From a virus (taxonomy: Duplodnaviria; Heunggongvirae; Uroviricota; Caudoviricetes): a stretch of 26,156 nt of DNA. The translations under genes were made by a program, and so were the position numbers. Numbering within the stretch: position 1 is the stretch's first letter; each line of letters starts with the position of its first letter. Positions 1-22,181 of the stretch are shown piece after piece. The notes beneath the pieces are model-generated. The model was not told where the DNA came from and searched no databases. It was given only the letters and a program-made list of their open reading frames with translations. The stretch lies in IMG/VR virus record IMGVR_UViG_2585427783_000007. One strand, 5' to 3'.

Positions 1-993
1 CTAATCGATGGACAGTTTATGGACACTTTCAGCCAGCGGATTAAAGTTGATCGCGTCCAGTAAAAAGTCCGGCGAAAAATGAGCGTACGTCATTGTTTGC
101 TGAATCGTTGCGTGCCCCAGGATTCGTTGCAACGTAACAATATTTCCGCCATTCATCATAAAGTGTGTGGCAAATGTATGACGCATGACATGCGTAGCCT
201 GCCCCTTCGGCAAATCCGGTTTCACCTCCTGAAGAATCTCCCGGAACTTCAGATAATCAACCTGATACAATAACCCCGTTCGACGGGTTTTAATCAGAGG
301 CACGACCGAATCCGCCACAGGAACCGAACGGGATTTTCCGTTTTTGGTGTTAAAGAACGTCACCCGGTTGCCAACGATATGCTCTCCACGTAGTTCCGAT
401 GCTTCACTCCATCGGGCACCAGTAGAAAGACACAGAATGGCAACACGACGCGCATCACCCTCCAGTCGCTCAAGAAGCCGTTCAATCTCATCATCAGAAA
501 GAAAGGCCATCTCTGTGTTCTGAACTTTCAGTTTTCGTATACCGCGTACAGGGTTCGCGTTGTGAAAGACCTCAGCTTCAATCAGCACCGTGAACATGGT
601 AGACAGTACGCATAAGTCACGATTAATACTGGACGGCATTAATCCGGCCTGTAATTTCTCTGACCGATATTCAAGCATAAATTTTCGCGTCATCTGACTG
701 GCGCGAGGATCTCCCATTTCACGAACAACCTTCCCTAGCCTAACCCTGTAGCTATCCCCGTAAGCCTGATTACGACCATCAAGCATCCACCACGCATCAA
801 GCAGCTCTGATAATCGCCGCTGATCAGCTGGCTTAGCCTGCCATGGCTTGTCATGAAAGTTCTGTAACACATACTTCTCAAACTCCTGAGCCTTTGATTT
901 CAGGGCAAAGATTTTTCGAATCCGCTTTCCTTCCGCCCCCTGCGGTCTGACATCGACCTGATAACGTCCGTCTTTGAGTTGCTTAATCGACAT
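1..993 (-). CDS. int: Tyrosine integrase (P2 Int-like)
   Basis: ORF table entry 1..1008 begins at a TTG; the first ATG is at 993 (MSIKQLKDGRY...) preceded by GGAGG. C-terminal tyrosine-recombinase motifs (VMRHTFATHF, LGHATIQQTMTYAHF) and end-to-end resemblance to P2 Int as I recall it. Confidence 0.9.
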   Translation of the reverse strand: MSIKQLKDGRYQVDVRPQGAEGKRIRKIFALKSKAQEFEKYVLQNFHDKPWQAKPADQRRLSELLDAWWMLDGRNQAYGDSYRVRLGKVVREMGDPRASQMTRKFMLEYRSEKLQAGLMPSSINRDLCVLSTMFTVLIEAEVFHNANPVRGIRKLKVQNTEMAFLSDDEIERLLERLEGDARRVAILCLSTGARWSEASELRGEHIVGNRVTFFNTKNGKSRSVPVADSVVPLIKTRRTGLLYQVDYLKFREILQEVKPDLPKGQATHVMRHTFATHFMMNGGNIVTLQRILGHATIQQTMTYAHFSPDFLLDAINFNPLAESVHKLSID

Positions 994-1062: not shown

Positions 1063-1404
1063 TCAGCCAACATTGCGGCCTGATCGGGGTGATTTTTGGG
1101 TAATGCCGATTGAAACCTGATCGCCCTCCGACTGAATAGATCCATCAAGAGAGAGAGCCGGAGCAATCTGCCCGGCGACAGGTAGCGTCTTATCTTTTAT
1201 TAGCCACAGCATGTATTTTTCAAAGCGATCGACTTGCAGAACCGCCTCAACGATTTTTGCTCTAGCGTTCTTTTGCCCCGATTCGTAATTCCTTATGGTT
1301 GCCAAAGACAACCCAGTAATATCCGCAAACTGCTTTTGTGTTAACCCTTCCGCCTTACGTATCTGACGTAACTTTTTTGCGTAGTCTATTGACAAGATAA
1401 CCAT
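1063..1404 (-). CDS. C: Immunity repressor (P2 C-like)
   Basis: ORF table entry 1063..1458 begins at TTG; the ATG at 1404 gives 113 aa (MVILSIDYAKKLRQIRKAEGLTQKQFADITGLS...). HTH-like N-terminus and a GQIAPAL motif that I recall from the P2 C repressor; divergent from the cox-like gene. Confidence 0.75.
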   Translation of the reverse strand: MVILSIDYAKKLRQIRKAEGLTQKQFADITGLSLATIRNYESGQKNARAKIVEAVLQVDRFEKYMLWLIKDKTLPVAGQIAPALSLDGSIQSEGDQVSIGITQKSPRSGRNVG

Positions 1405-1508: not shown

Positions 1509-2030
1509 ATGCGGGACTTCATTGCCGATAAAGAGTTATCTGACCACCAACCACTTCAGGAAAGTGACGCACTCAGCGGATCCATTGATGCCGCCAACGA
1601 CGACGAGCACGAAGAAAACAAGAAAAAGCGTTCCTACAAAAAAGGAGCGACTTTGCGGCTGGATGGTCCGATCGCCGGGCTTTGCTCTCTGGAAAAAGGC
1701 GCGGCATATATTGGGCTAACAAAATCTGCACTGCGCGTAGCCATTCATCGCGGTCAAATGCCGGGACACAAGACGCGCACAAACCCGGAAGATGAAAACT
1801 CAGACGGAGTATGGTGGTTTAACGCCAAAGAGTGGGACAAGTTGGCTGATGAGCTACCAGAGCACGAGCCCCCAGAATGGCACAACTGGAAAAGTTACTG
1901 GACGTATGACCGCCAGAAAAGGAAGTTCTCTCCAGCTAATAAAGAAGACTGCCAGACCATTAACGGTAAGCGAGTTTATACAGGCAGAAGCTCAAAACTG
2001 GACCAACTCAGAAACAACAGAGGCAACTAA
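1509..2030 (+). CDS. Cox/Apl-like excisionase-regulator with an acidic N-terminal extension (173 aa)
   Basis: ATG at 1509 with AAGAGGA 6 nt upstream; first gene of the rightward operon. Central segment (LTKSALRVAIHRGQMPG...DGVWWFNAKEWDKL) resembles the HTH and wing of P2 Cox as recalled; the first ~60 aa are acidic and have no P2 counterpart. Confidence 0.5.
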   Translation: MRDFIADKELSDHQPLQESDALSGSIDAANDDEHEENKKKRSYKKGATLRLDGPIAGLCSLEKGAAYIGLTKSALRVAIHRGQMPGHKTRTNPEDENSDGVWWFNAKEWDKLADELPEHEPPEWHNWKSYWTYDRQKRKFSPANKEDCQTINGKRVYTGRSSKLDQLRNNRGN

Positions 2031-3796: not shown

Positions 3797-3889
3797 CGAT
3801 ACAAATAAAACATCAAATTAAATAAGAAAACGTGAAAACCATCCGTATTAACGGAGGTATTCGCACACGCAAATAACGGAGATACAAAA

Positions 3890-4300
3890 ATGCACGCAAA
3901 AGAAGAAGGTATCATCAGAGCACTGAAAGAAATTTCAAAGACAGAAAACGAAGTAGCGAAAAAAGCCATAGCAAATAATCATATGGACGTCGCAACCCAC
4001 ACACTGATAGTCGCAAGAGTCACGGCAGAAGCAGCCGAAATTATCGCAAAACAGGATGCTGAACTGGCGGTTCTCAGAACACAACCAGTCACCGGACTGG
4101 ATTTGTCTAACACCGGACGCCTTATTTACACAATTGGCTCAGAGCCACAGCGATACACCATTATCGCCGGATTACAGGACAAATACCTGATCACTCCTTA
4201 CCCCATAAGGGAATCAGCGCTTCTGACAAATCTCCACCTGATAGAGCGCTCTCAGGTCGCATTCATTGATGACGCCCAACACACCGTATTTAACGCATAG
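3890..4300 (+). CDS. Hypothetical early protein (136 aa)
   Basis: ATG at 3890 with GGAG 9 nt upstream; table ORF. Confidence 0.6.
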   Translation: MHAKEEGIIRALKEISKTENEVAKKAIANNHMDVATHTLIVARVTAEAAEIIAKQDAELAVLRTQPVTGLDLSNTGRLIYTIGSEPQRYTIIAGLQDKYLITPYPIRESALLTNLHLIERSQVAFIDDAQHTVFNA

Positions 4301-4329: not shown

Positions 4330-4533
4330 ATGGCAATTAAGCATTTTCCCGTCGTTCGCTTTACCTCCAGAGGGCACGAATACGAGGTCGACGAACGCCT
4401 GATTACCACTATCGACAAACATCGTTCGGAAAAGGATGCACACCACATCTACCTCACTGACGGCACTTACTTCTGCGCCACCAACGTGGCGCGAGTAAAT
4501 CTTATCCGACAGGTACAGGAGCCACGCAGATGA
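4330..4533 (+). CDS. Hypothetical early protein (67 aa)
   Basis: ATG at 4330 preceded by an A7-GA-G7 tract acting as RBS; stop overlaps the next start. Confidence 0.55.
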   Translation: MAIKHFPVVRFTSRGHEYEVDERLITTIDKHRSEKDAHHIYLTDGTYFCATNVARVNLIRQVQEPRR

Positions 4534-4796
4534 CCATTCTGGACTACATCACTACTCATCCGGGGTGTAGCGGCGGAGAGATCGCCGCAGCACTGAATAC
4601 CCCAACCACAGCCATTAATGCTGAGTTACGCCGACTTTGGCGCGGCGGCTTAGTCATCAGAACAAACCGCAGCACAGGTGGTCGCGCTCGCAAAACAGGA
4701 GGCCAGGCTTCTTACCACGTAAACCCGATGCCGTTCGGGTGTAGCAATCCACTTACTCACATGTTTAACCAGCTACTGAAGGAAGCCAGAGCATGA
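4530..4796 (+). CDS. Hypothetical small DNA-binding-like protein (88 aa)
   Basis: ATG at 4530 with AGGAG 8 nt upstream; the segment GCSGGEIAAALNTPTTAINAELRRLWRGGLVIR reads like a winged-helix recognition region (inference only). Confidence 0.5.
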   Translation: MTILDYITTHPGCSGGEIAAALNTPTTAINAELRRLWRGGLVIRTNRSTGGRARKTGGQASYHVNPMPFGCSNPLTHMFNQLLKEARA

Positions 4797-5092
4797 GCAC
4801 CATCAACCACCAGAAGCTACGCGAACTGGCATTTGCCCTGCAACGAATGGCAACGCCTCAAAAATTACTGGCATTTCGCGCAATGCTCTCGCCGTCTGCT
4901 GTGCTGGCACTGCTGAATGAGCTGGAGCACGCCAGAACCACGGCCCCTGCCATTCGCCTGACGCTCCATCATGAAATCGCTGATTTCTGCGCGACGTTGG
5001 AGGCGCCGGGCGAACCGGAAACGCCGGAAGCAATACAGCAAGAGCTGCTGCAACGCATTGACAAGGTTTTTGATTTTTTTCTGAACCAGTAA
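4793..5092 (+). CDS. Hypothetical early protein (99 aa)
   Basis: ATG at 4793 overlapping the previous stop (ATGA); table ORF. Confidence 0.55.
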   Translation: MSTINHQKLRELAFALQRMATPQKLLAFRAMLSPSAVLALLNELEHARTTAPAIRLTLHHEIADFCATLEAPGEPETPEAIQQELLQRIDKVFDFFLNQ

Positions 5093-5209
5093 GAAACCAG
5101 AACATGCACACACAAAAAAACCGCTTGCCATGCCGCAATCAGTCAGGTTACATTTCCGCTGCACCTCATAAAACGGGTGCCGGGATTGGAACCCCGCTGA
5201 CTATGCACG

Positions 5210-5235
5210 CGCACAACCGCGCCAGCGGTTTTTTT
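5210..5235 (+). terminator. Hairpin plus T7 run (weak intrinsic-terminator-like element)
   Basis: CGCACAA-CCGC-GCCA-GCGG-TTTTTTT-GTGCG: inner 4-bp GC stem followed by seven T; outer 7-bp arms CGCACAA/TTGTGCG. Confidence 0.3.
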
Positions 5236-5290
5236 GTGCGTACCGTATCGCCACGTCTTTTTCGCGTCAGAATTATGGTGGGGCGTATGG

Positions 5291-5309
5291 GGCCGACTTC
5301 GGTCGGGCC
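5291..5309 (+). other. Stable GC-rich hairpin with a UUCG-type tetraloop
   Basis: GGCCGAC-TTCG-GTCGGGCC, within a 322-bp GC-rich non-coding block. Confidence 0.35.
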
Positions 5310-5346
5310 GGATTCGTGCGTAGCCGGTAGTTCCAACCCTGTACGT

Positions 5347-5387
5347 CTCACCACCCCGAGCTTGGAACCTCTGGATGGTGAGTTTTT
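5347..5387 (+). terminator. Stem (CTCACCA/TGGTGAG) with large loop followed by T5 run
   Basis: 7-bp arms at 5347-5353 and 5376-5382, then TTTTT at 5383-5387, just upstream of the RBS of the 5415 gene. Confidence 0.3.
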
Positions 5388-5414
5388 AAAACTTACTACG
5401 TACGAGGCCACCCC

Positions 5415-5645
5415 ATGGCAAACCGCAAACAACAGCGCGCATACGCTGCGCGTCGTCACATCCAGACTGAAATCAACCGCAGACTTTTCCGCGCATTCCG
5501 CGTCGCGCATATCATGCACATCAATATGCTGCATGAACGCAGTCACGCACTATCGAACAGCTATTCCGCCTCTGTTTTCAGCTATCTGGCAGATGATCTG
5601 CGCGAGCTTCAAAAGCTCATCCAGCAGCAAAACAAACTCCATTAA
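5415..5645 (+). CDS. Hypothetical small basic protein (76 aa)
   Basis: ATG at 5415 with GAGG 9 nt upstream; table ORF; arginine-rich N-terminus. Confidence 0.5.
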   Translation: MANRKQQRAYAARRHIQTEINRRLFRAFRVAHIMHINMLHERSHALSNSYSASVFSYLADDLRELQKLIQQQNKLH

Positions 5646-5717
5646 TTCCTGTTCCGGGCCTTTCCTGCACCTTGCGGCGGGAGGCCTTCGCACATCTGTA
5701 ACAAGAGGATTGCCGCA

Positions 5718-6083
5718 ATGATTCTCGCCAACGACTTTCTTGAATACCTGCTCAATACAGAACGTGATCTTGCCGCTCGCGTGCGTGATCGTTATGACAT
5801 GTACCTGAAATCCCTGCCTGTACCGCAGCTCGCTGACGGAAAGATTGTTATTGATGGTCGCTACATGATTGACAGCCACGAGGGAAATTACAGGCTTTAC
5901 CGCATTGAAGGTGGCACCCCGTCCGTTATTGGCATTTACCAGCGCCCATCCTCTGCAATCGTCGATGTGATTGCCGACAGCATCCGCATCACACATCGCC
6001 ATGCCGACACAGAAGACACCGTGCTGGAAATTCAGCGGCTGGCTACAGTCTGCCGCGACACCCTGAATGGCATGACGAAGTAA
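5718..6083 (+). CDS. Hypothetical early protein (121 aa) immediately upstream of A
   Basis: ATG at 5718 with AAGAGGA 8 nt upstream; stop 6 nt before the A start. Confidence 0.6.
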   Translation: MILANDFLEYLLNTERDLAARVRDRYDMYLKSLPVPQLADGKIVIDGRYMIDSHEGNYRLYRIEGGTPSVIGIYQRPSSAIVDVIADSIRITHRHADTEDTVLEIQRLATVCRDTLNGMTK

Positions 6084-6089
6084 ATCACT

Positions 6090-8912
6090 ATGACGGCAGA
6101 GTACCTCAGGGACTGGCAACAACCGCGCCACGCAGTGGGGCGTGAAGGAACGGGGATCCCCGCTCCTGAATCCGCGCTTTCCTCCTGGCTGGATGCCTAC
6201 CGGGCAGAGAACGAGCGCCGCCAGGAAATGGCTGATGCGGCGTTCTCAGCCACGCCGCTGGGCAACCTGATTAATAAAAGCCTGGACGCACAGGAAAAAC
6301 AGGACAAAACCATCACACTGGCAGGAGACGCCAGAAAACAGGCACGTGGCGCGGTGGATGAAGCCATGGCCTCGCTGCGCCTGCTGCCGTCCTATCTGCG
6401 CGATCCGCTTATTCGCCACCTCTCCTTCCTGCGCAAAAAACAGGAAGCCGATCGCCGGAAAGGCAAAAAGAGCTGGCAGGCGGAACGCTATGCACGCGGA
6501 ACCCTGCGCAAAATATTCGAACGTCTGGATAGCACTGACGGACGCTGGCTGACACCGGGTTATCGCTCCCTTGCCGGACGCGAACGCCTGGACGATTTGC
6601 TTTACCTGCCGCAGCTCAACAAACACCAGATACAGACGCTGGCCACCATGACGGCGGCGATGTTCAGCAGCACCTTCGAAAAACTCTGCGATGGCTTTGG
6701 CGCGACCGATGGCGAGCTGACCATGGATGTAACCCTGAAGGCGTATCAGATGCTGGCCCGCATGGCGTTACACCTGCACGCCATGCCTCCACATTATGAC
6801 GCACTGACAACAGACAAAGACCGGAGGAACGAACCGGACACGGAGCTGCTGCCGGGCGCAATCCTTCGCCTGACCTGTGCGGAATGGTGGAAACGCAAAC
6901 TGTGGCTGTTACGTTGCGAGTGGAGAGAAGAACAACTCCGCGCCGCCTGTCTGGTTTCCAGAAAAACATCACCCTATCTGAGCCAGGACGCGTTAAGCGA
7001 GTTTCGCGCACAGCGCGAGAAAACACGCGATTTCCTGAAAAGTTTCATGCTGGAAAATGAAGACGGGTTCACGATTGATCTCGAGACAGTGTATTACGCG
7101 GGAGTAAGTAACCCGGTTCACCGTAAGGCAGAAATGATGGCCACCATGAAGGGACTGGAACTTCTGGCCGAAGCCCGTGGCGACAAAGCGGTGTTTCTGA
7201 CTGTCACCTGCCCGTCAAAATACCACGCCACAACGGAGAACGGTCATCCGAATCCCAAATGGAACGGGGCCACAATGCGCGACTCCAGCGATTACCTGGT
7301 TAACACGTTTTTTGCGGCGGTCCGCAAAAAACTGAACCGCGACGGCCTGCGCTGGTATGGCATCCGCACGGTGGAGCCTCATCATGACGGCACCGTGCAC
7401 TGGCATATGATGGTCTTTGCACATCCGGAAGAAATCGACACCATTGTGTCCCATACCCGCGATATTGCCATTCAGGAAGACCGCCACGAGCTGGGCAATG
7501 ATATTACTCCGCGCTTTAAGGTGGAGTATGTCGACGGCTCAAAAGGCACGCCAACCAGCTACATCGCCACCTACATCGGAAAGAACCTGGACAGCCGCGC
7601 CGTGGATGGCATCGACCCGAAAACGGGCAAGCCACGCATGGACCACGAAACCGGAAAATCAATGGCCGAGAGCGTGGAGCGCGCCATCGGCTGGGCGCGC
7701 CTTCACCGGGTCCGTCAGTTCCAGTTCTTTGGCATCCCCTCCCGTCAGGTGTGGCGTGAACTGCGCCGCCTTGCCAGCCAGATGGCACGCAATCCGGAAG
7801 GCCCGCAACGGCTGAAAGATGATGCAATGGATGCGGTACTCGCTGCCGCCGATGCCGGGTGTTTTGCCACCTACATTGAAAAACAGGGTGGCGTGCTTGT
7901 TCCACGCAAGGACTACCTGATTCGCACCGCCTACGACCTCGCAGATGAGCTGAACGATTACGGCGAACAGAGCGTACAGATTTACGGGATCTGGTCACCA
8001 CTCATCGGGGAATCCTCCCGTGTGTGCACGCATCCGGATAACTGGAAGCTGGTAAGACGTAAACCGGAAGCGGAAGACAGCGCCCGCGAAAATGGTTTTG
8101 ACCTTCAGGACGGCCCTGCCGCCCCTTGGACTCGTGGCAATAACTGTCCCCGTGTACAGGAAACGGACAACAACGGGACAGAACAGCCGGAAGAACGGCC
8201 AGCACCGTGGCCGCAGCTTCCTGACGGCGTTGACGTGAACGAATGGATGCGCTCACTGAAACGGCACGAACGCCGGGCGCTGATGCGTTCGCTGCGTGAC
8301 AAACAGGCAAAAAACAGCAGTGATGAAATGCAGAGCTGGACACAGAGCCGCAAACAGCAGCGGCCTTTGCCTGATAACCACGAATTACTCGCTAAAGAAT
8401 GGCGGGAATCTGCCGAATCTCTCGGCCTGCATATCGGTGAACAGCAGATGCAGCACCTGTTACGGGGCGGCAGCCTGTACGTTGACGGCAGCATCATTGC
8501 ACCGCAGGGATTTGAAATTGTACGCAAACCGGATACCCGCCCGGACAGCCGAATCACGCAGCTCTGGCAGCGCCTGAGCCGTAATCACGGCGTAAGCAGC
8601 ACGGAGATCCGCCATAACCCGGTCGCCAGCTATCTGGAACAGCTGGGGGCATCAGACCCCGAAGCCGCCGCACGTCTGGCATCCACACTTCAGCAGGACC
8701 AGAACACCATGACCCCCCCCGTTACCGTGCTTTCTGACATGCTGCGCGCCATCCGCGACGCAGAGCACGCACAGAGAATCAGTGAAACCACTGAACGTGC
8801 CCGCCGCAAAGCAGACCTGCTGCGGGGTGGCCTGACCAGTGGAAACAAAAAACAGACAGAAACGGGATTCACAAATCCCGTAAATGAGCAAAAAACGCGC
8901 CGCGATATATGA
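6090..8912 (+). CDS. A: Rolling-circle replication initiator (P2 gpA-like), 940 aa with extended C-terminus
   Basis: HUH motif in EPHHDGTVHWHMMVF and paired-tyrosine motif YIATYIGKN; N-terminal and core resemblance to P2 gpA as recalled; about 180 aa longer than the ~760-aa P2 protein. Confidence 0.9.
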   Translation: MTAEYLRDWQQPRHAVGREGTGIPAPESALSSWLDAYRAENERRQEMADAAFSATPLGNLINKSLDAQEKQDKTITLAGDARKQARGAVDEAMASLRLLPSYLRDPLIRHLSFLRKKQEADRRKGKKSWQAERYARGTLRKIFERLDSTDGRWLTPGYRSLAGRERLDDLLYLPQLNKHQIQTLATMTAAMFSSTFEKLCDGFGATDGELTMDVTLKAYQMLARMALHLHAMPPHYDALTTDKDRRNEPDTELLPGAILRLTCAEWWKRKLWLLRCEWREEQLRAACLVSRKTSPYLSQDALSEFRAQREKTRDFLKSFMLENEDGFTIDLETVYYAGVSNPVHRKAEMMATMKGLELLAEARGDKAVFLTVTCPSKYHATTENGHPNPKWNGATMRDSSDYLVNTFFAAVRKKLNRDGLRWYGIRTVEPHHDGTVHWHMMVFAHPEEIDTIVSHTRDIAIQEDRHELGNDITPRFKVEYVDGSKGTPTSYIATYIGKNLDSRAVDGIDPKTGKPRMDHETGKSMAESVERAIGWARLHRVRQFQFFGIPSRQVWRELRRLASQMARNPEGPQRLKDDAMDAVLAAADAGCFATYIEKQGGVLVPRKDYLIRTAYDLADELNDYGEQSVQIYGIWSPLIGESSRVCTHPDNWKLVRRKPEAEDSARENGFDLQDGPAAPWTRGNNCPRVQETDNNGTEQPEERPAPWPQLPDGVDVNEWMRSLKRHERRALMRSLRDKQAKNSSDEMQSWTQSRKQQRPLPDNHELLAKEWRESAESLGLHIGEQQMQHLLRGGSLYVDGSIIAPQGFEIVRKPDTRPDSRITQLWQRLSRNHGVSSTEIRHNPVASYLEQLGASDPEAAARLASTLQQDQNTMTPPVTVLSDMLRAIRDAEHAQRISETTERARRKADLLRGGLTSGNKKQTETGFTNPVNEQKTRRDI

Positions 8913-8988: not shown

Positions 8989-9948
8989 ATGAAAATTTGT
9001 ATCGACGACGGCTCCACCAACATCAAGCTGGCATGGACTGAGAATGGCGAACGCCGCAACGCCATCAGCCCGAACAGCTTCAAGTCGGAATGGTCTGCGC
9101 CGTTCGGTGGCATGCAGCCCGCGAACTACATGCTTGATGGCGTGCGCTATGGTTTTGATCCGGTTAGCGATCGCTTTGTCCAGACGACCGACACGCAATA
9201 CCAGTACAGCGATGTGAATGTAATCGCCATTCATCACGCGCTGGTCAAATCAGGCATCACGCCACAGGAGGTGGATGTGGTTGTCACCCTGCCACTGAGC
9301 GAGTATTTCGACACAAACGCACAGCCGGACATGGCCAACATCAACCGCAAAAAAGCGAACGTTATGCGCCCGGTGGAGTACCAGAACGGCGAAGCATTCA
9401 CTATCCGTAACGTGCGGGTTATGCCTGAATCCATTCCGGCTGGCTTTAAAGCACTGGCTGACATGAGTCCGTTTGAATCCCTGCTGATTGTGGATTTAGG
9501 CGGAACCACGCTGGATGTGGCAAAGGTTCAGGGGCAACTGGCAGGTATCAGCCAGGTGTTTTGCGATCCACACGTAGGCGTCTCCCTGATGGCCGGTGCC
9601 GTGCTGTCGGTGATGGCCGCTAACGGTATGCGTACCAGTCACCACATCGCCAATACCATTATCGAACATCGCCATGATGAAGCCTGGTTGCGCCAACACA
9701 TCCACAATGACGCGCATTACGCCAGCCTGATGGCGGTTATTCGTGAAAAGGAAGAAACACTGAAACAACGCGTGATCCGCGCGCTGGCGGGTTTTTCGGG
9801 TTACGGGCGGGTGATGGTTGTCGGTGGCGGGGCGGAGATTGTGGCACCCGCTATCCGCGAAGCCTGCGGAGTTAATGCGACTTTCATCGCGGACGAGGTG
9901 CCACAGTTTGCTCTGGTTAATGGGCTGTACGCAATGGACAAGGAGTAA
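8989..9948 (+). CDS. parM: ParM/StbA-family actin-like segregation ATPase
   Basis: 319 aa; MKICIDDGSTNIKLAW..., ...LLIVDLGGTTLDV..., ...VMVVGGGAEI... are actin/ASKHA phosphate and adenosine motifs; co-linear resemblance over the whole length to plasmid R1 ParM as I recall it. AAGGA RBS 8 nt upstream. Confidence 0.85.
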   Translation: MKICIDDGSTNIKLAWTENGERRNAISPNSFKSEWSAPFGGMQPANYMLDGVRYGFDPVSDRFVQTTDTQYQYSDVNVIAIHHALVKSGITPQEVDVVVTLPLSEYFDTNAQPDMANINRKKANVMRPVEYQNGEAFTIRNVRVMPESIPAGFKALADMSPFESLLIVDLGGTTLDVAKVQGQLAGISQVFCDPHVGVSLMAGAVLSVMAANGMRTSHHIANTIIEHRHDEAWLRQHIHNDAHYASLMAVIREKEETLKQRVIRALAGFSGYGRVMVVGGGAEIVAPAIREACGVNATFIADEVPQFALVNGLYAMDKE

Positions 9949-9952
9949 ACCA

Positions 9953-10267
9953 ATGACGACACCAACCAGACGGATAAGTTTCTATCTGAAGCCAGTCGCC
10001 GTCAATAGTGAACGGGAGGCGTGTAATTACCTCGACAGCCTGCCAGCCTCTGAACGCAGCCGCGCGCAACGCGCGGCCTTTCTGGCCGGGCTGGCACTCA
10101 TAAAACGCGATCCTGCATTTGCCTATTGGTTGGCCGAATGGCCGGAAGAAGGAGCTGCGCCAGCCAAGAATAATATTCAGAGTAAATATGCCAGCACACC
10201 TGCCACCGGAAGCAATCACAGCACTAGCGAGATAAGAAAGAACATTCAGTCATTTTTCCCAGAGTGA
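9953..10267 (+). CDS. parR: ParR-like centromere-binding adaptor (104 aa)
   Basis: ATG at 9953 with AGGAG inside the parM 3' end; N-terminal RRISFYLKP...LDSLPASERSRAQRAAFLAGLAL matches the pattern of the R1 ParR ribbon-helix-helix region as recalled; follows parM as in R1. Confidence 0.7.
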   Translation: MTTPTRRISFYLKPVAVNSEREACNYLDSLPASERSRAQRAAFLAGLALIKRDPAFAYWLAEWPEEGAAPAKNNIQSKYASTPATGSNHSTSEIRKNIQSFFPE

Positions 10268-19728: not shown

Positions 19729-20356
19729 GGCATTCACCCGCGTGGATGAAACCTTTGAGGCCATCCGCGACAGCCTGAATCAGCAGGCCATCAATAACAT
19801 CGCCAGAAAGCTGGCACAGGATTTACGCCGCGCCCAGCAGGCGCGTATCCGGTCACAGAAAGCGCCGGACGGGACCGCGTGGACACCACGCAGACGCCGC
19901 GTAACCCGGATACAGGAACGCATTCGCTTTATCTGGAATAACGAAGCACGCACGCTGAAAAACTGGCATCACGACACGGGGAAATACGGGCGAACCATTA
20001 CCGGGTGGGATGAGGATAAAAACAATATCCGCACGTTTTACCGGGATGACATCGACCGTTTTCTGGAAATACGCACCCGGCGCATCAACCAGGACAGCAC
20101 AAAGCGCGTCCCCATGTTCGTAAAACTGCGCACCGCCCGCTACCTGAAAGCCCGTGCAGATGCTTCCGGTGTGACGGTGGGTTACAGCGGCGTGGCCGCA
20201 CGTATTGCCCGCGTTCATCAGTTCGGTGAGCGCGATCAGGTTGCGCCGGGCATTTTCACCAATTACCCGGCACGTGAGCTGCTGGGTATCAGCCAGACAG
20301 ATGAGCGCCTGATTTATAACACGGTGCTGGGCCGGATTGCGGAGGCTGTACGGTGA
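19721..20356 (+). CDS. S: Tail completion/virion morphogenesis protein (P2 gpS-like) with an internal insertion
   Basis: ATG at 19721 (table ORF begins at GTG 19712); ...LRRAQQARIRSQKAPDG... and ...RIARVHQFGERD... flank a ~65-aa segment that I do not recall in P2 gpS. Confidence 0.75.
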   Translation: MDKAFTRVDETFEAIRDSLNQQAINNIARKLAQDLRRAQQARIRSQKAPDGTAWTPRRRRVTRIQERIRFIWNNEARTLKNWHHDTGKYGRTITGWDEDKNNIRTFYRDDIDRFLEIRTRRINQDSTKRVPMFVKLRTARYLKARADASGVTVGYSGVAARIARVHQFGERDQVAPGIFTNYPARELLGISQTDERLIYNTVLGRIAEAVR

Positions 20357-20934
20357 GCGCAGAACTCATGCGACTGCTGAGCAATATCATCCGCACCGGG
20401 ATCATCTCTGAAGTTGATGAGAAGTCCTGGCGCGTGCGCGTTCGCAGCGGCGAACTGGAAACAGACTGGTTGCGCTGGAACACCACGCGCGCGGGAGCCT
20501 TCAATGTGTGGCTGCCGCCATCACCCGGCGAACAGGTGGTAATTGCCTGCATTGGCGGCAACCCGGAAACCGCCATGATAATTGGCAGCCTGTGGAGTGA
20601 TGCCAGTCCGGCCCCCGGCAAAAGCCTGAAAGAAATCGTGATCAGCGCGCCGGACGGCGCGGTGTTCCGCTACGACGCGGACGCTGGCGCACTGAGCGCC
20701 AGCGGCATGAAAACGGCCACTTTACAGGCATCCGTCAGCGTGAAACTGGATACGCCCGTCGTGGAATGCACAAACCTTCTGAGAACGGCGACGCTTGACG
20801 TCACAAAAGGAGGAAAGATGAGCGGCAATATCACGCACAGCGGCGGCAACTTCACCTCAAACGGCATTACAGTGCATACGCATAAACACGGTGGCGTGAA
20901 AGGCGGCAGCGATTCGACAGGAGGCCCACAGTGA
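20353..20934 (+). CDS. V: Baseplate spike/central hub protein (P2 gpV-like)
   Basis: GTG start overlapping the S stop; NIIRTGIISEVD, TDWLRW, GEQVVIACIGG, TPVVECTN, VHTHKHGG blocks resemble P2 gpV as recalled. Confidence 0.85.
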   Translation: MSAELMRLLSNIIRTGIISEVDEKSWRVRVRSGELETDWLRWNTTRAGAFNVWLPPSPGEQVVIACIGGNPETAMIIGSLWSDASPAPGKSLKEIVISAPDGAVFRYDADAGALSASGMKTATLQASVSVKLDTPVVECTNLLRTATLDVTKGGKMSGNITHSGGNFTSNGITVHTHKHGGVKGGSDSTGGPQ

Positions 20935-21281
20935 CAACCCGCTACACAGGAATGAACCCGGACGGAACGGGAAACCTGAACGATATGGAGCACCTGAAAC
21001 AGTCAGTCAGGGACATCCTGACCACCCCGCTGGCAAGCCGGGTTATGCGACGGGAATATGGCAGCCTTGTGCCTGATTTGATTGACGAACCCATGAATAA
21101 CACCACGCGTCTGCAATGCATGAGTGCTGCCGTGATTGCGCTGACACGATGGGAACCCCGCATTGCCCTGGATGCCATTGACGTTGTCTGGAAAGCGGGA
21201 GGCCGCGCCGGGGTGACGCTGTCGGGCACTGTCATGCAGACCATGCAGAATGTTGAGTTAACCATCACGCTGAGGGAGTAA
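20931..21281 (+). CDS. W: Baseplate wedge protein (P2 gpW-like, GPW/gp25 family)
   Basis: GTG start with AGGAGG 6 nt upstream; RYTGMN...DILTTPLASRVMRREYGSL...WEPRI resembles P2 gpW as recalled. Confidence 0.8.
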   Translation: MTTRYTGMNPDGTGNLNDMEHLKQSVRDILTTPLASRVMRREYGSLVPDLIDEPMNNTTRLQCMSAAVIALTRWEPRIALDAIDVVWKAGGRAGVTLSGTVMQTMQNVELTITLRE

Positions 21282-21284
21282 ATC

Positions 21285-22181
21285 ATGCCCGCCGTTGACC
21301 TTTCCCAGTTACCAGAACCCGCCATCATCGCGGAGCCTGACTTTGAAGCAATTCTGGCTGACACAAAGGCCATGATGATTGCAGCTTATCCCGCCGAACA
21401 GCGTGAAGCCGTTTCCGCTGCGCTGGAGCTGGAATCGGAACCCCTGAACGTTATCGCCCAGACAACAGCGTTTCGTGAAATGCTGTTACGCCAGCGGGTC
21501 AATGAGGGTGCACGCGCCTGCATGTTAAGCCACAGCGCCGGGACAGACCTGGACAACCTCGCGGGCAATATGAACACAAAGCGCCTGGTTATCACTCCGG
21601 CAACGGATACCACCGACGCGGTGATGGAGAGCGACACCTCGCTGAGACTGCGGGCGCAGCGGGCGTACGACGGCCTGAGTGTTGCTGGCCCGTCAGGTGC
21701 ATACGAGTATTTTGCACGCAGCGCCAGCGGTCTGGTGCGTGATGCGCGGGCCATCAGCCCGTCTCCGGCCTGTGTGACGGTTTCCATCCTGTCCACTGAA
21801 GGCGACGGCACAGCAACGGAGGCGTTGCTTAATACCGTTCGTGCCGTTCTGAATGCAGAGGATACCCGCCCGGTGGCCGACCGCCTGACCGTACAGAGCG
21901 CCAGAATCGTGACATGGCGGCTGAATGCAAAACTGTACTTTTATCCCGGCCCGGAATCCGAACCTATTCTGGCTGCGGCTGAATCGTCGTTCAGGAAGTG
22001 GCTGGCTGAGCAGGGGCTTATCGGTCAGGACGTGGCGTTGTCCGCCATTGCTGCCGCACTGCATGTGCACGGTGTGCAACGCGTGGAGATAATCGAACCC
22101 ACACAGAATATGGCCATCAGCGACATACAGGCGGCGCGCTGTGAGTCATTCACCATCAGCGAAGGTGGGCGTAATGAGTAA
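21285..22181 (+). CDS. J: Baseplate protein J (P2 gpJ-like)
   Basis: 298 aa; DLSQLPEP, SEPLN, QRVNEGARA, GLSVAGPSGAY, SPSPACVTVSILS, RPVADRLTVQSA, YPGPESEPI, HVHGVQRVE blocks co-linear with P2 gpJ as recalled. Confidence 0.85.
   Translation: MPAVDLSQLPEPAIIAEPDFEAILADTKAMMIAAYPAEQREAVSAALELESEPLNVIAQTTAFREMLLRQRVNEGARACMLSHSAGTDLDNLAGNMNTKRLVITPATDTTDAVMESDTSLRLRAQRAYDGLSVAGPSGAYEYFARSASGLVRDARAISPSPACVTVSILSTEGDGTATEALLNTVRAVLNAEDTRPVADRLTVQSARIVTWRLNAKLYFYPGPESEPILAAAESSFRKWLAEQGLIGQDVALSAIAAALHVHGVQRVEIIEPTQNMAISDIQAARCESFTISEGGRNE

Follow-up and report, generated by a model that had tools for sequence, protein, structure and literature searches.

A probable antisense-RNA immunity cassette of the P1 immI and P4 type in the early operon of a P88-like prophage

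What is the role of a short, structured block of DNA that separates the small early open reading frames (ORFs) from the replication gene of a tailed phage? We addressed this question for 322 bp (positions 5093-5414) of a viral sequence of 26,156 nucleotides (IMG/VR record IMGVR_UViG_2585427783_000007), the whole of which is called the window here. The window represents an E. coli prophage of P88-like (P2-family) type, a complete P2-like helper-type phage and not a satellite, and the block sits in its early operon. A first-pass annotation had correctly located the block, with the small early ORFs on one side and the replication gene on the other, and had described it as GC-rich and as looking like a structured RNA, with hairpins followed by T runs. 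The compositional part of this description does not hold, as the GC fraction of the block is 0.545-0.565 compared with 0.515-0.565 in the flanks. The structural part is supported by Rfam matches, RNA folds and a terminator scan; what it missed was a putative trans-acting antisense core with a predicted promoter of its own, together with target sites complementary to that core on both sides of it, the downstream set overlying the next gene's ribosome-binding site. On the strength of the Rfam matches, a layout shared with known systems, covariation, a conserved promoter motif and the diversity profile, the block very probably represents an entire immunity cassette based on antisense RNA, of the type known from P1 immI and P4 (Table 1). 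Regulatory modules of this kind are well known in phages, and the block is an unremarkable example of one.

Table 1. Coordinates of the features of the cassette and of the neighbouring genes in the window
Feature	Position	Strand	Basis or remark
Counterpart of P4 eta, 205-aa ORF	5104-5721	+	Pfam Phage_ASH
Long-range inverted repeat, 21 nt	5108-5128 and 5221-5241	+	19/21 bases complementary
Sigma-70-type promoter, TTGCCA / 18-nt spacer / TACATT	5125-5154	+	Promoter scan; predicted start about 5161
Leader RNA, homologous to IsrK and P4 seqA	5161-5235	+	Rfam isrK
Leader hairpin 1	5161-5180	+	
Leader hairpin 2	5181-5196	+	Target site a1 in loop
Upstream target site a1, UUGGAAC	5186-5192	+	
Upstream target site b1, CUAUGCACG	5201-5209	+	
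Intrinsic terminator hairpin, AACCGC-GCCA-GCGGUU	5215-5230	+	Terminator scan; 3' hairpin of isrK model
U7 run after leader terminator	5229-5235	+	
C4/CI-type antisense RNA	5271-5358	+	Rfam C4, full length
C4 basal stem	5276-5292 with 5337-5353	+	MFE fold
C4 hairpin 1, CCGAC-UUCG-GUCGG (CUUCGG loop)	5293-5306	+	
C4 hairpin 2	5307-5328	+	Recognition element b' in loop
Recognition element b'	5313-5323	+	Hairpin 2 loop
Recognition element a', GUUCCAA	5330-5336	+	Single-stranded
Alternative hairpin, CUCACCA (5347-5353) with UGGUGAG (5376-5382), then U5 (5383-5387)	5347-5387	+	Terminator-like
Downstream target site a2, UUGGAAC	5362-5368	+	Perfect 7-nt inverted repeat with a'
Downstream target site b2, CUACGUACGAG	5396-5406	+	Complementary to b'
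Shine-Dalgarno GAGG	5404-5407	+	Overlapped by b2; 7 nt before ATG at 5415
Epsilon-like ('derepression') gene, 76 aa, predicted first regulated gene	5415-5645	+	Distant P4 epsilon homologue
121-aa ORF	5718-6083	+	ORF list, RefSeq annotation
P2-type replication endonuclease gpA	6090-8912	+	ORF list, RefSeq annotation

The covariance-model search that had been suggested as a check returned two families above their gathering scores. In a search of the whole window, the C4 model (RF01695) matched over its full length (positions 1-87 of 87) with 79.8 bits (gathering score 45; E = 2e-14), which is higher than the 68.8 bits of P1 c4 itself, and the isrK model (RF01394) matched at positions 1-77 of 77 with 67.4 bits (gathering score 50; E = 1e-12). 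A relaxed search of 4900-5800 gave C4, isrK and c4-a1b1 and no other Rfam family. The c4-a1b1 model (RF03163) reached 19 bits in the window, below its gathering score of 46.7, compared with 51 bits in P1 and 44.1 bits in P4, although the complementarity of a1/b1 to C4 is present in the window. This score counts against the cassette reading, as does a first gene that differs from those of the prototypes: unlike P4 kil it is out of frame with the eta-like ORF, and it is only a weak epsilon homologue.

Folding and comparative alignment had also been suggested as checks. Both the MFE and the centroid fold of 5276-5354 reproduce the C4 model (-42.9 kcal/mol, z = -4.07), none of 200 shuffles folds as well, and the fold of the whole block has a z-score of -3.4. 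The UUCG hairpin that had been reported at 5291-5309 was recovered with slightly narrower limits as hairpin 1 of the C4 model, and its stem covaries among 59 homologues, four pairs each having 27-34 sequences changed on both sides. This hairpin and the CTCACCA arm had been read as separate signals; both are parts of the C4 RNA. In the basal stem, variation between U and C at 5279 is accompanied by A or G at 5350 in P88-like sequences, as judged by eye. When diverse C4 sequences were aligned with MAFFT and folded with RNAalifold, indels in the basal stem limited the result to the two inner hairpins and the innermost basal-stem pairs, and the basal stem was therefore taken from the Rfam alignment and the single-sequence folds. 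The RNA carries a tRNA-acceptor-like stem ending in CACCAC and is homologous to the annotated ends of the P1 RNA. By analogy with the annotated 77-nt P1 C4, the mature RNA is predicted at about 5276-5354, and we infer that RNase P releases it from a longer transcript as a stable repressor RNA acting in trans. The processing site proposed in the first-pass annotation thus finds a likely counterpart, by homology to P1 C4 and P4 CI, in the excision of this RNA.

Upstream of the C4 RNA lies a leader with a predicted promoter of its own. The promoter motif TTGnnn-N16-18-TAnnnT was found in 56/56 diverse loci, where it scores 7-10 of 12 (5-6 in controls) and where the end of the -10 element lies 29-33 nt (mode 31) upstream of a1; it is nearly invariant among P88-like phages. 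In the window the motif ends 7 nt before the start of the isrK model, and the same place is taken by the annotated promoter in P1 and by promoter-like hexamers that we read in the P4 sequence. At the other end of the leader, the terminator scan and the isrK model agree on a hairpin followed by a T7 run at 5215-5235, in line with the earlier assignment of such an element to 5210-5235.

Upstream (a1/b1) as well as downstream (a2/b2), the target sites are exact complements of the C4 recognition elements b' and a'. Among 50 distinct P88-like cassettes, 99.7% of 798 cells are paired between a'/b' and a1/b1, compared with 68.9% in shuffles and 25-53% in slid controls, and 11/16 pairs have changed on both sides. 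For a'/b' and a2/b2, 97.6% of 900 cells are paired (71.3% in shuffles), with 10/18 pairs changed on both sides; the a'-a2 helix is paired in 100% of cases, with changes on both sides in 4/7 pairs. The six patches (a1, b1, b', a', a2 and b2) thus vary in concert among related phages, and the differences between the window, P88 and L040 are almost confined to them. The diversity profile of P88-like phages shows the same division: promoter, hairpins and terminator are nearly invariant, whereas the specificity patches are hypervariable. Diversity falls from 0.30-0.47 to 0.003 at about 5110, which marks the left edge of the conserved cassette.

The same relationship was observed beyond the P88-like group. 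In a diverse sample with about 60 specificities, cognate complementarity exceeded non-cognate complementarity (9.2 compared with 6.3 nt at the downstream site), and in diverse loci the downstream site runs directly into GGAG, with an ATG after it. The predicted duplex of the window C4 with its cognate b2 has an energy of -24.5 kcal/mol, whereas duplexes of this C4 with four other types lie between -2.8 and -11.0 kcal/mol; overall, cognate duplexes range from -21 to -24.5 kcal/mol and non-cognate ones from -3 to -15 kcal/mol. As the recognition elements covary with both sets of targets, they define many heteroimmune types. Among P88-like phages the code comprises 12 b' types and 6 a' types in 18 observed a'/b' combinations, and the specificity type of the window itself was found in only 7 of 5426 genomes.

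Between the C4 RNA and the first gene, the CTCACCA/TGGTGAG stem and T5 run previously noted at 5347-5387 were confirmed at 5347-5353, 5376-5382 and 5383-5387. This alternative hairpin consists of the 3' arm of the C4 basal stem and the segment between a2 and b2, with a2 in its loop. Family-wide, an equivalent helix at +36 to +40 covaries with different sequences (cognate mean 7.7 nt, non-cognate 6.1 nt), but the U-run behind it occurs in some lineages only, and a role for U5 as a family-wide terminator was therefore rejected.

The first gene behind the cassette encodes a product of 76 aa that scores 25.6 bits with Pfam PF25738, just below the cut-off of 27, and is 31% identical to P4 epsilon over 51 aa (BLASTP, E = 5e-7); its relatives are named 'derepression protein' in RefSeq. 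Diversity at the three codon positions is 0.04, 0.054 and 0.123, and this third-position excess indicates that the ORF is a real gene. From their position and by comparison with P4, the 121-aa ORF and gpA (5718-8912) are presumed to be under control of the cassette as well. A Pfam search of the 76-aa and 121-aa products found no Bro-N, Ant, KilA or Icd domain. In other members of the C4 family, Bro-N, AntA or Rha genes are located downstream.

We propose the following mechanism, in which the steps beyond complementarity and covariation are inferred by analogy with P1 and P4. Transcription would start at about 5161 from the internal promoter; the leader with a1 and b1 would end at the hairpin and U7 run, and read-through RNA would contain the C4/CI-type RNA, to be cut out by RNase P and 3' trimming as in P1 and P4. 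In the lysogen, C4 would accumulate and pair in trans with a2/b2 (and a1/b1) of transcripts of the same specificity. Pairing could block translation of the 76-aa gene and could lead to premature termination at U5 (5383-5387), by Rho, or by both, so that the antirepressor-like protein, the 121-aa protein and endonuclease A would not be made. The outcome would be a second, RNA-based and type-specific layer of immunity above the protein repressor. In the lytic cycle, RNA made from the upstream early promoter would include the start of the eta-like 205-aa ORF, and ribosomes crossing the cassette might prevent the RNA structures from forming and allow downstream expression, as published for P4 eta.

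A positive switch of the IsrK type complements this antisense model rather than excluding it. Here the short leader (5161-5235), stopped at U7, would act in trans as a decoy: its a1/b1 sites would capture C4, either free or as part of read-through transcripts, and so leave the ribosome-binding site accessible, turn on the 76-aa gene and promote induction. The leader fits the isrK model over its full length, including the terminator, and a1/b1 is as complementary to C4 as a2/b2 is. There is also a precedent in Gifsy-1, where a short IsrK RNA activates an antirepressor (PMC4825925). Furthermore, an AUG is present at the 5' end of the C4-like region in the window (5275) and in 51/58 family members, and its frame reaches the downstream start codon in 33/44 cases, compared with 35/88 for control frames. 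In the window, however, this frame runs 304 nt past the start of the 76-aa gene, which makes an orf45-type coupling to that gene unlikely, and the net effect of the module in both P4 and P1 is repression. We therefore regard the switch as a tentative addition to the antisense model, possible but not probable.

The long-range inverted repeat reported earlier is real, and longer than had been claimed. It might form a helix only in transcripts from the early promoter, where it could create an RNase III site or alter termination at U7. In addition to its 19/21 complementary bases, the helix is present in both the MFE and the centroid fold of the block; the repeat is invariant in nearly all P88-like cassettes, and in one variant (L186) both homopolymer runs are shortened together (A6 and T6). 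Two other variants, L127 (G to A) and L210 (A7 with T6), break the helix without compensation, and covariation, being inconsistent, was rejected as an argument for it. The repeat is confined to P88-like cassettes, with no counterpart in P1, P4 or other family members. Moreover, its left arm includes an A7 tract (5114-5120) just upstream of the -35 element, in a position like that of an UP element, and an A-tract recurs at the same distance in P4-like loci; the tract is thus equally well explained as part of the promoter. On this evidence we consider a function of the helix in early transcripts improbable.

The hypervariable, two-part specificity of the cassette could also be read in another way. 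If P2-family helpers and P4-type satellites share one RNA-immunity/epsilon module, C4-based cross-regulation between elements of matching specificity could occur in either direction, and the diversity would reflect an arms race between helper and satellite and not only heteroimmunity among phages. In a limited sample, no specificity common to P88-like and P4-like cassettes was seen, which counts against this reading, and we judge it distinctly improbable.

The antisense reading must also be weighed against an overlapping frame. The claim that the block contains no plausible ORF was not upheld: the 205-aa ORF matches Phage_ASH with 33.7 bits (cut-off 26) at aa 16-109, exactly over the block. 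It starts upstream of the internal promoter, runs through the entire cassette and on across the 76-aa gene, which is in a different frame, and its stop codon overlaps the next ATG (ATGA, 5718-5721). Could the region mainly encode an Ash/Eta-family protein, with the RNA-like features being secondary? Families of the PHROG category 'transcriptional regulator' match as well, PGAP calls an 'ash family protein' pseudogene at the block, and the ORF is kept in most P88-like loci with the cassette; across 58 loci, a forward frame is open over the block in 41, compared with 25 for the reverse strand and about 27% of shuffles. However, all the protein-family matches are confined to the stretch of the RNA module. 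Codon-position diversity in the block is 0.121, 0.131 and 0.114, with no third-position excess, in contrast to the threefold excess in the neighbouring 76-aa gene. Loop and spacer lengths in the family differ by non-multiples of three, 17/58 loci lack an open frame, and the variable patches follow the logic of base pairing and not that of codons. In P4, the Rfam C4 match overlaps with the old 'cI protein' CDS, which is part of the eta ORF and likewise matches Phage_ASH; the CI repressor of P4 has been described as an RNA (PMC10111431). On the basis of codon-position diversity, indel lengths and the frameless loci, the protein-coding reading was rejected as highly unlikely.

A conserved frame had been named in the first-pass annotation as an observation that would speak against a structured RNA. 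A frame is present, but it does not refute the RNA, because in P4 the RNA module and an overlapping ORF coexist. Selection for the long frame over the 76-aa gene was considered and rejected, since the frame is open by chance in 9-29% of synonymous resamples, which is not significant. Any role of the eta-like ORF in overriding immunity is uncertain here, as several P88-like loci carry a broken copy and no coding constraint is evident. Finally, a purely cis-acting reading, with intrinsic terminators or an attenuator and no trans-acting RNA, is hardly credible: it would account for the two hairpin-plus-U-run sites (5215-5235 and 5347-5387), but it leaves unexplained an internal promoter conserved in every one of the 56 loci, the three-way covariation of sites 130-200 nt apart and the full-length membership of the C4 family.

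Under the antisense model, P2-like phages of the P88-like group appear to carry a second, highly polymorphic RNA layer of immunity, which would gate replication gene A and an antirepressor gene of the epsilon-like kind. If so, superinfection immunity between such prophages should be predictable from the cassette's specificity type as well as from the protein repressor. P88-like prophages with the cassette stretch occur in roughly one quarter of the complete genomes of E. coli. Our literature search found nothing on the cassette RNA in P88 or Xuanwuvirus. Present annotations show the stretch either as a pseudogene of an 'ash family protein' or as hypothetical proteins; an isrK/seqA leader and a C4/CI antisense RNA with target sites would be a better annotation. 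The known mode of action of the family is unchanged by these findings.

The P4 immunity region is among the closest known systems. P4 CI blocks expression of the alpha replication operon. In P4, the same two Rfam models match in the same order and with the same spacing as in the window (isrK on seqA, C4 on CI), and the window follows the P4 order of seqA, CI and seqC, then kil and epsilon. The IsrK-C4 pair has been equated with seqA and CI of P4 immunity (PMC3632133), and P4 is known to have a constitutive promoter inside eta, termination that acts through CI and seqA, and an override by eta translation (PMC10111431). Both modules have a promoter (predicted in the window) directly upstream of the leader hairpins, a terminator after the upstream target sites, a CI/C4 RNA complementary to sites on both sides, and a downstream site fused to the Shine-Dalgarno sequence of the first gene. 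In both, an ORF that begins upstream of the promoter spans the module and matches Phage_ASH, and an epsilon-family gene, in the window a putative and distant member, and a replication gene follow. The differences are that P4 is a satellite, whereas the window is a complete P2-like helper-type phage; that the first gene of the window is epsilon-like and out of frame with the eta-like ORF, whereas P4 kil, which has no homologue in the window, is in frame; that the replication gene encodes a P2-type endonuclease A instead of the alpha primase; and that the specificity sequences differ and the window has the additional 21-nt long-range repeat.

Gifsy-1 resembles the window in having a full-length isrK leader with a terminator, a C4-like RNA and an antirepressor-type gene downstream, although it is a lambdoid phage and the window is P2-like. 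The authors of the Gifsy-1 study (PMC4825925) consider IsrK homologous to P4 seqA and STnc1160 homologous to CI, and reported that over-expressed short IsrK activates the antirepressor via an ORF whose start lies at the 5' end of the C4-like stretch. The emphasis there is on activation, in which the short RNA acts by way of orf45 translation and anrP is coupled to it. Unlike orf45, the equivalent AUG frame of the window does not end at the start of the next gene.

In P1, the annotated features map one-to-one on those of the window: promoter, a1 in a hairpin loop, b1, terminator, 77-nt C4, a2, b2 over the ribosome-binding site and the first gene. The window promoter is the counterpart of P1 P1c4 (P51b), as it is of P4 PLE; the P1 promoter has Op51, an operator for the primary repressor. 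P1 immI has icd and ant downstream of C4, whereas the window has neither. The 5' arm of P1 C4 is almost identical to that of the window (GAAUUAUGGUGGGGCGU), and heteroimmunity of the P1/P7 style, defined by the recognition sequences, is mirrored by the 18 a'/b' combinations of P88-like phages.

The block preceding the 76-aa ORF (Table) is a canonical example of an antisense-RNA immunity module that has long been known and that standard covariance models recognise. The covariance-model search that the first-pass annotation had recommended, made with Rfam, returned isrK (5161-5235; 67.4 bits, cut-off 50) and C4 antisense RNA (5271-5358; 79.8 bits, cut-off 45), both full length and at the gathering threshold; overlapping the isrK match is a weak, sub-threshold c4-a1b1 match (19 bits). 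In P4, the isrK and C4 models also both match, at seqA and CI RNA directly 5' of epsilon, and the C4 model likewise matches the annotated c4 RNA of P1. IsrK has been explicitly described as the structural homologue of seqA in P4, and C4 as that of CI (PMC3632133; PMC4825925). What kind of element this is, how it works and how widely prophages carry it are already established; our literature search turned up no paper on the RNA module in phages of the P88-like or P2-like groups.

The window is a P88-type prophage of the P2 family (genus Xuanwuvirus), 100% identical to a sequence of E. coli JBEHAAB-19-0176, and its site adjoins dmsA. Of 5426 complete E. coli genomes, 1365 contain the 1.2 kb surrounding the block. 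The integrated prophage carries ParM-like plasmid segregation and partition genes immediately 3' of gene A (8989-10267), and a 626-aa DUF6645 gene (19876-21756) lies between the lysis and tail genes, a typical position for cargo (moron) genes.

Gene order in the window and anatomy of the RNA cassette (element names follow P1 nomenclature)
Feature	Position	Strand	Remark
Integrase	1-993	-	
Helix-turn-helix repressor-like gene	1063-1404	-	
cox	1509-2030	+	
Small early ORFs			after cox; last two are the next rows
MarR-like gene	4530-4796		
99-aa ORF	4793-5092		
Block	5093-5414		between 99-aa and 76-aa ORFs
Promoter motif	5125-5154		TTGCCA-18 nt-TACATT
Transcription start	about 5161		predicted
Leader hairpin 1	5161-5180		
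a1	5186-5192		UUGGAAC; in loop of leader hairpin 2
b1	5201-5209		CUAUGCACG
Leader terminator	5215-5235		hairpin + U7
Spacer	5236-5270		
C4 RNA	about 5276-5354		predicted mature form
b'	5313-5323		in loop of C4 hairpin 2
a'	5330-5336		GUUCCAA; single-stranded
Alternative hairpin	5347-5387		CUCACCA/UGGUGAG + U5
a2	5362-5368		UUGGAAC
b2	5396-5406		CUACGUACGAG; overlaps SD GAGG (5404-5407)
76-aa ORF	5415-5645		first gene 3' of block; ATG at 5415
121-aa ORF	5718-6083		between 76-aa ORF and gene A
Replication endonuclease A	6090-8912		then ParM-like partition genes, then P2-type structural genes

The first-pass annotation had correctly read the block as structured RNA with a regulatory role, including terminators and processing; the identity of the RNA and its trans-acting logic had escaped it. 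All the hairpins and repeats that it listed are present in the sequence: its UUCG hairpin is C4 hairpin 1, its hairpin plus T7 corresponds to the leader terminator, and its CTCACCA arm forms the 3' side of the basal stem of C4. The description of the block as GC-rich did not hold, as its G+C content (0.545-0.565) shows no excess over that of the flanks (0.515-0.565).

Comparative data point to recognition elements that change together with their targets. A pattern scan of viral contigs yielded 120 loci, about 60 of them with distinct recognition sequences, and nearly all of the latter contain two copies of the hairpin-2 loop complement, one upstream, 14-16 nt past the first site, and one downstream at +50 to +58, fused to GGAG and ATG; the single-stranded element has its complement at +22 to +28. 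Complementarity in these loci was longer for cognate than for non-cognate combinations, both upstream (8.2 versus 6.7 nt) and downstream (9.2 versus 6.3 nt). Among the P88-like loci (n=80, collected by search with the 76-aa protein), 50 distinct cassettes were aligned and are near-identical except at six short patches, where nucleotide diversity peaks; it is almost nil across the promoter, hairpin 1 and terminator. In these 50 cassettes the proposed intermolecular a'/b' helices are 99.7% paired with the upstream sites (11 of 16 pairs changed on both sides) and 97.6% paired with the downstream sites (10 of 18), compared with about 70% for shuffles and 25-53% for slid registers. Duplexes were predicted at -21 to -24.5 kcal/mol when cognate and at -3 to -15 kcal/mol when non-cognate. 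With 12 b' and 6 a' types, the P88-like cassettes show 18 a'/b' combinations, and the types look reassorted among relatives. The window's own C4 specificity (5297-5345) is rare, occurring in 7 of the 5426 genomes (1365 for the surrounding P88-like sequence), all with the same P2-like context. In a related P2-like prophage of E. coli strain Bongo (NZ_CM153263; L207), two complete cassettes of isrK, C4 and derepression gene lie in tandem (3865-4124 and 4477-4736), with different recognition sequences, the first being of the window's type.

The promoter motif was found in 56/56 diverse loci, its -10 hexamer ending 29-33 nt 5' of a1; the annotated P1c4 (P51b) promoter of P1 occupies the same position, and in P4 matching hexamers can be read there, where PLE is expected. 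The long-range inverted repeat proved longer than first described (5108-5128 versus 5221-5241, 19/21 bases) and is specific to P88-like cassettes, at their left boundary, with its A-tract in an UP-element-like position; its natural variants showed no consistent covariation (compensated at comparison locus L186, uncompensated at L127 and L210). The C4 basal stem can also pair, through its 3' arm, with the a2-b2 spacer (5347-5382), in a helix that covaries family-wide (equivalents in loci L003-L122), with sequences that differ among lineages and a2 placed in the loop; a U-run follows it in only some lineages, including the window. We found no published description of this helix, whose role could be to expose a2 in a loop, to terminate transcription in the U-run lineages or to compete with the C4 fold.

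The block had also been said to contain no plausible ORF, yet a 205-aa ORF (5104-5721) spans it, with a match to Pfam Phage_ASH (PF10554) above the curated cut-off. This match is confined to residues 16-109 (5149-5430), exactly the RNA module; several PHROG 'transcriptional regulator' families hit that stretch too, and PGAP places a pseudogene, a truncated 'ash family protein', at 5203-5370. All three labels correspond to the RNA module in translation and not to a protein with codon-level constraint. In P4 (locus L123, 8168-8584), the obsolete 'cI gene product' CDS also matches Phage_ASH and is part of a 214-aa ORF, the eta gene, which runs into the 65-aa ORF 3' of the seqC Shine-Dalgarno, presumably kil. 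A survey of P4 satellites (PMC8628076) took PF10554 as its marker for 'epsilon'; in P4, the family that epsilon matches is PF25738, and PF10554 is matched by the neighbouring cI/eta ORF. In the part of PMC10111431 that summarises Forti 1999, a constitutive promoter lies inside eta, eta is translated solely from the upstream late promoter, and its translation prevents immunity-dependent termination.

The 205-aa ORF is retained in most P88-like loci with the cassette. In the P88-like set, diversity by codon position in the block is 0.121, 0.131 and 0.114, with no third-position excess, versus a clear excess in the 76-aa gene (0.04, 0.054 and 0.123), over which the open frame of the 205-aa ORF is not statistically remarkable. 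Family-wide, an open forward frame across the block is enriched (41/58 cases; reverse strand, 25/58; shuffles, about 27%) but not universal, and loop lengths differ by non-multiples of three. In our reading, the frame stays open for translation through the block and not for encoding a conserved protein. Therefore, the conserved frame, which the first-pass annotation had expected to refute a structured RNA, exists in form but does not refute it. The stop codon of this ORF overlaps the start of the 121-aa gene (ATGA, 5718-5721) in the window and in most P88-like relatives, which could be translational coupling or chance.

Family membership, fold, promoter motif, two terminator-like sites, three-way covarying complementarity and occlusion of the Shine-Dalgarno by b'/b2 pairing were computed here. 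By analogy with P1, P4 and Gifsy-1, C4 would be processed by RNase P and 3' trimming, build up in the lysogen and act in trans to block translation of the 76-aa gene, causing premature termination ahead of the 121-aa gene and gene A; in lytic growth, ribosomes translating the eta-like ORF on early-promoter transcripts would override this. The sequence is also compatible with the short leader RNA being a C4 decoy with an activating role of the Gifsy-1 type.

Elsewhere in the family, the first gene 3' of the cassette often encodes a Bro-N, AntA or Rha antirepressor. In three viral contigs its product is an 85-aa protein in which a Tad2-like (Thoeris anti-defence 2) domain scores above the Pfam cut-off (L009, 2013-2267; L032, 5995-6249; L068, 3834-4088), which suggests that C4-type RNAs can gate anti-defence genes too. 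The 76-aa product is distantly homologous to P4 epsilon (31% identity over 51 aa, E = 5e-7; 25.6 bits against PF25738, cut-off 27), and therefore an antirepressor-like function is probably gated by the window's cassette along with replication, in parallel with c4-ant of P1 and IsrK-anrP of Gifsy-1.
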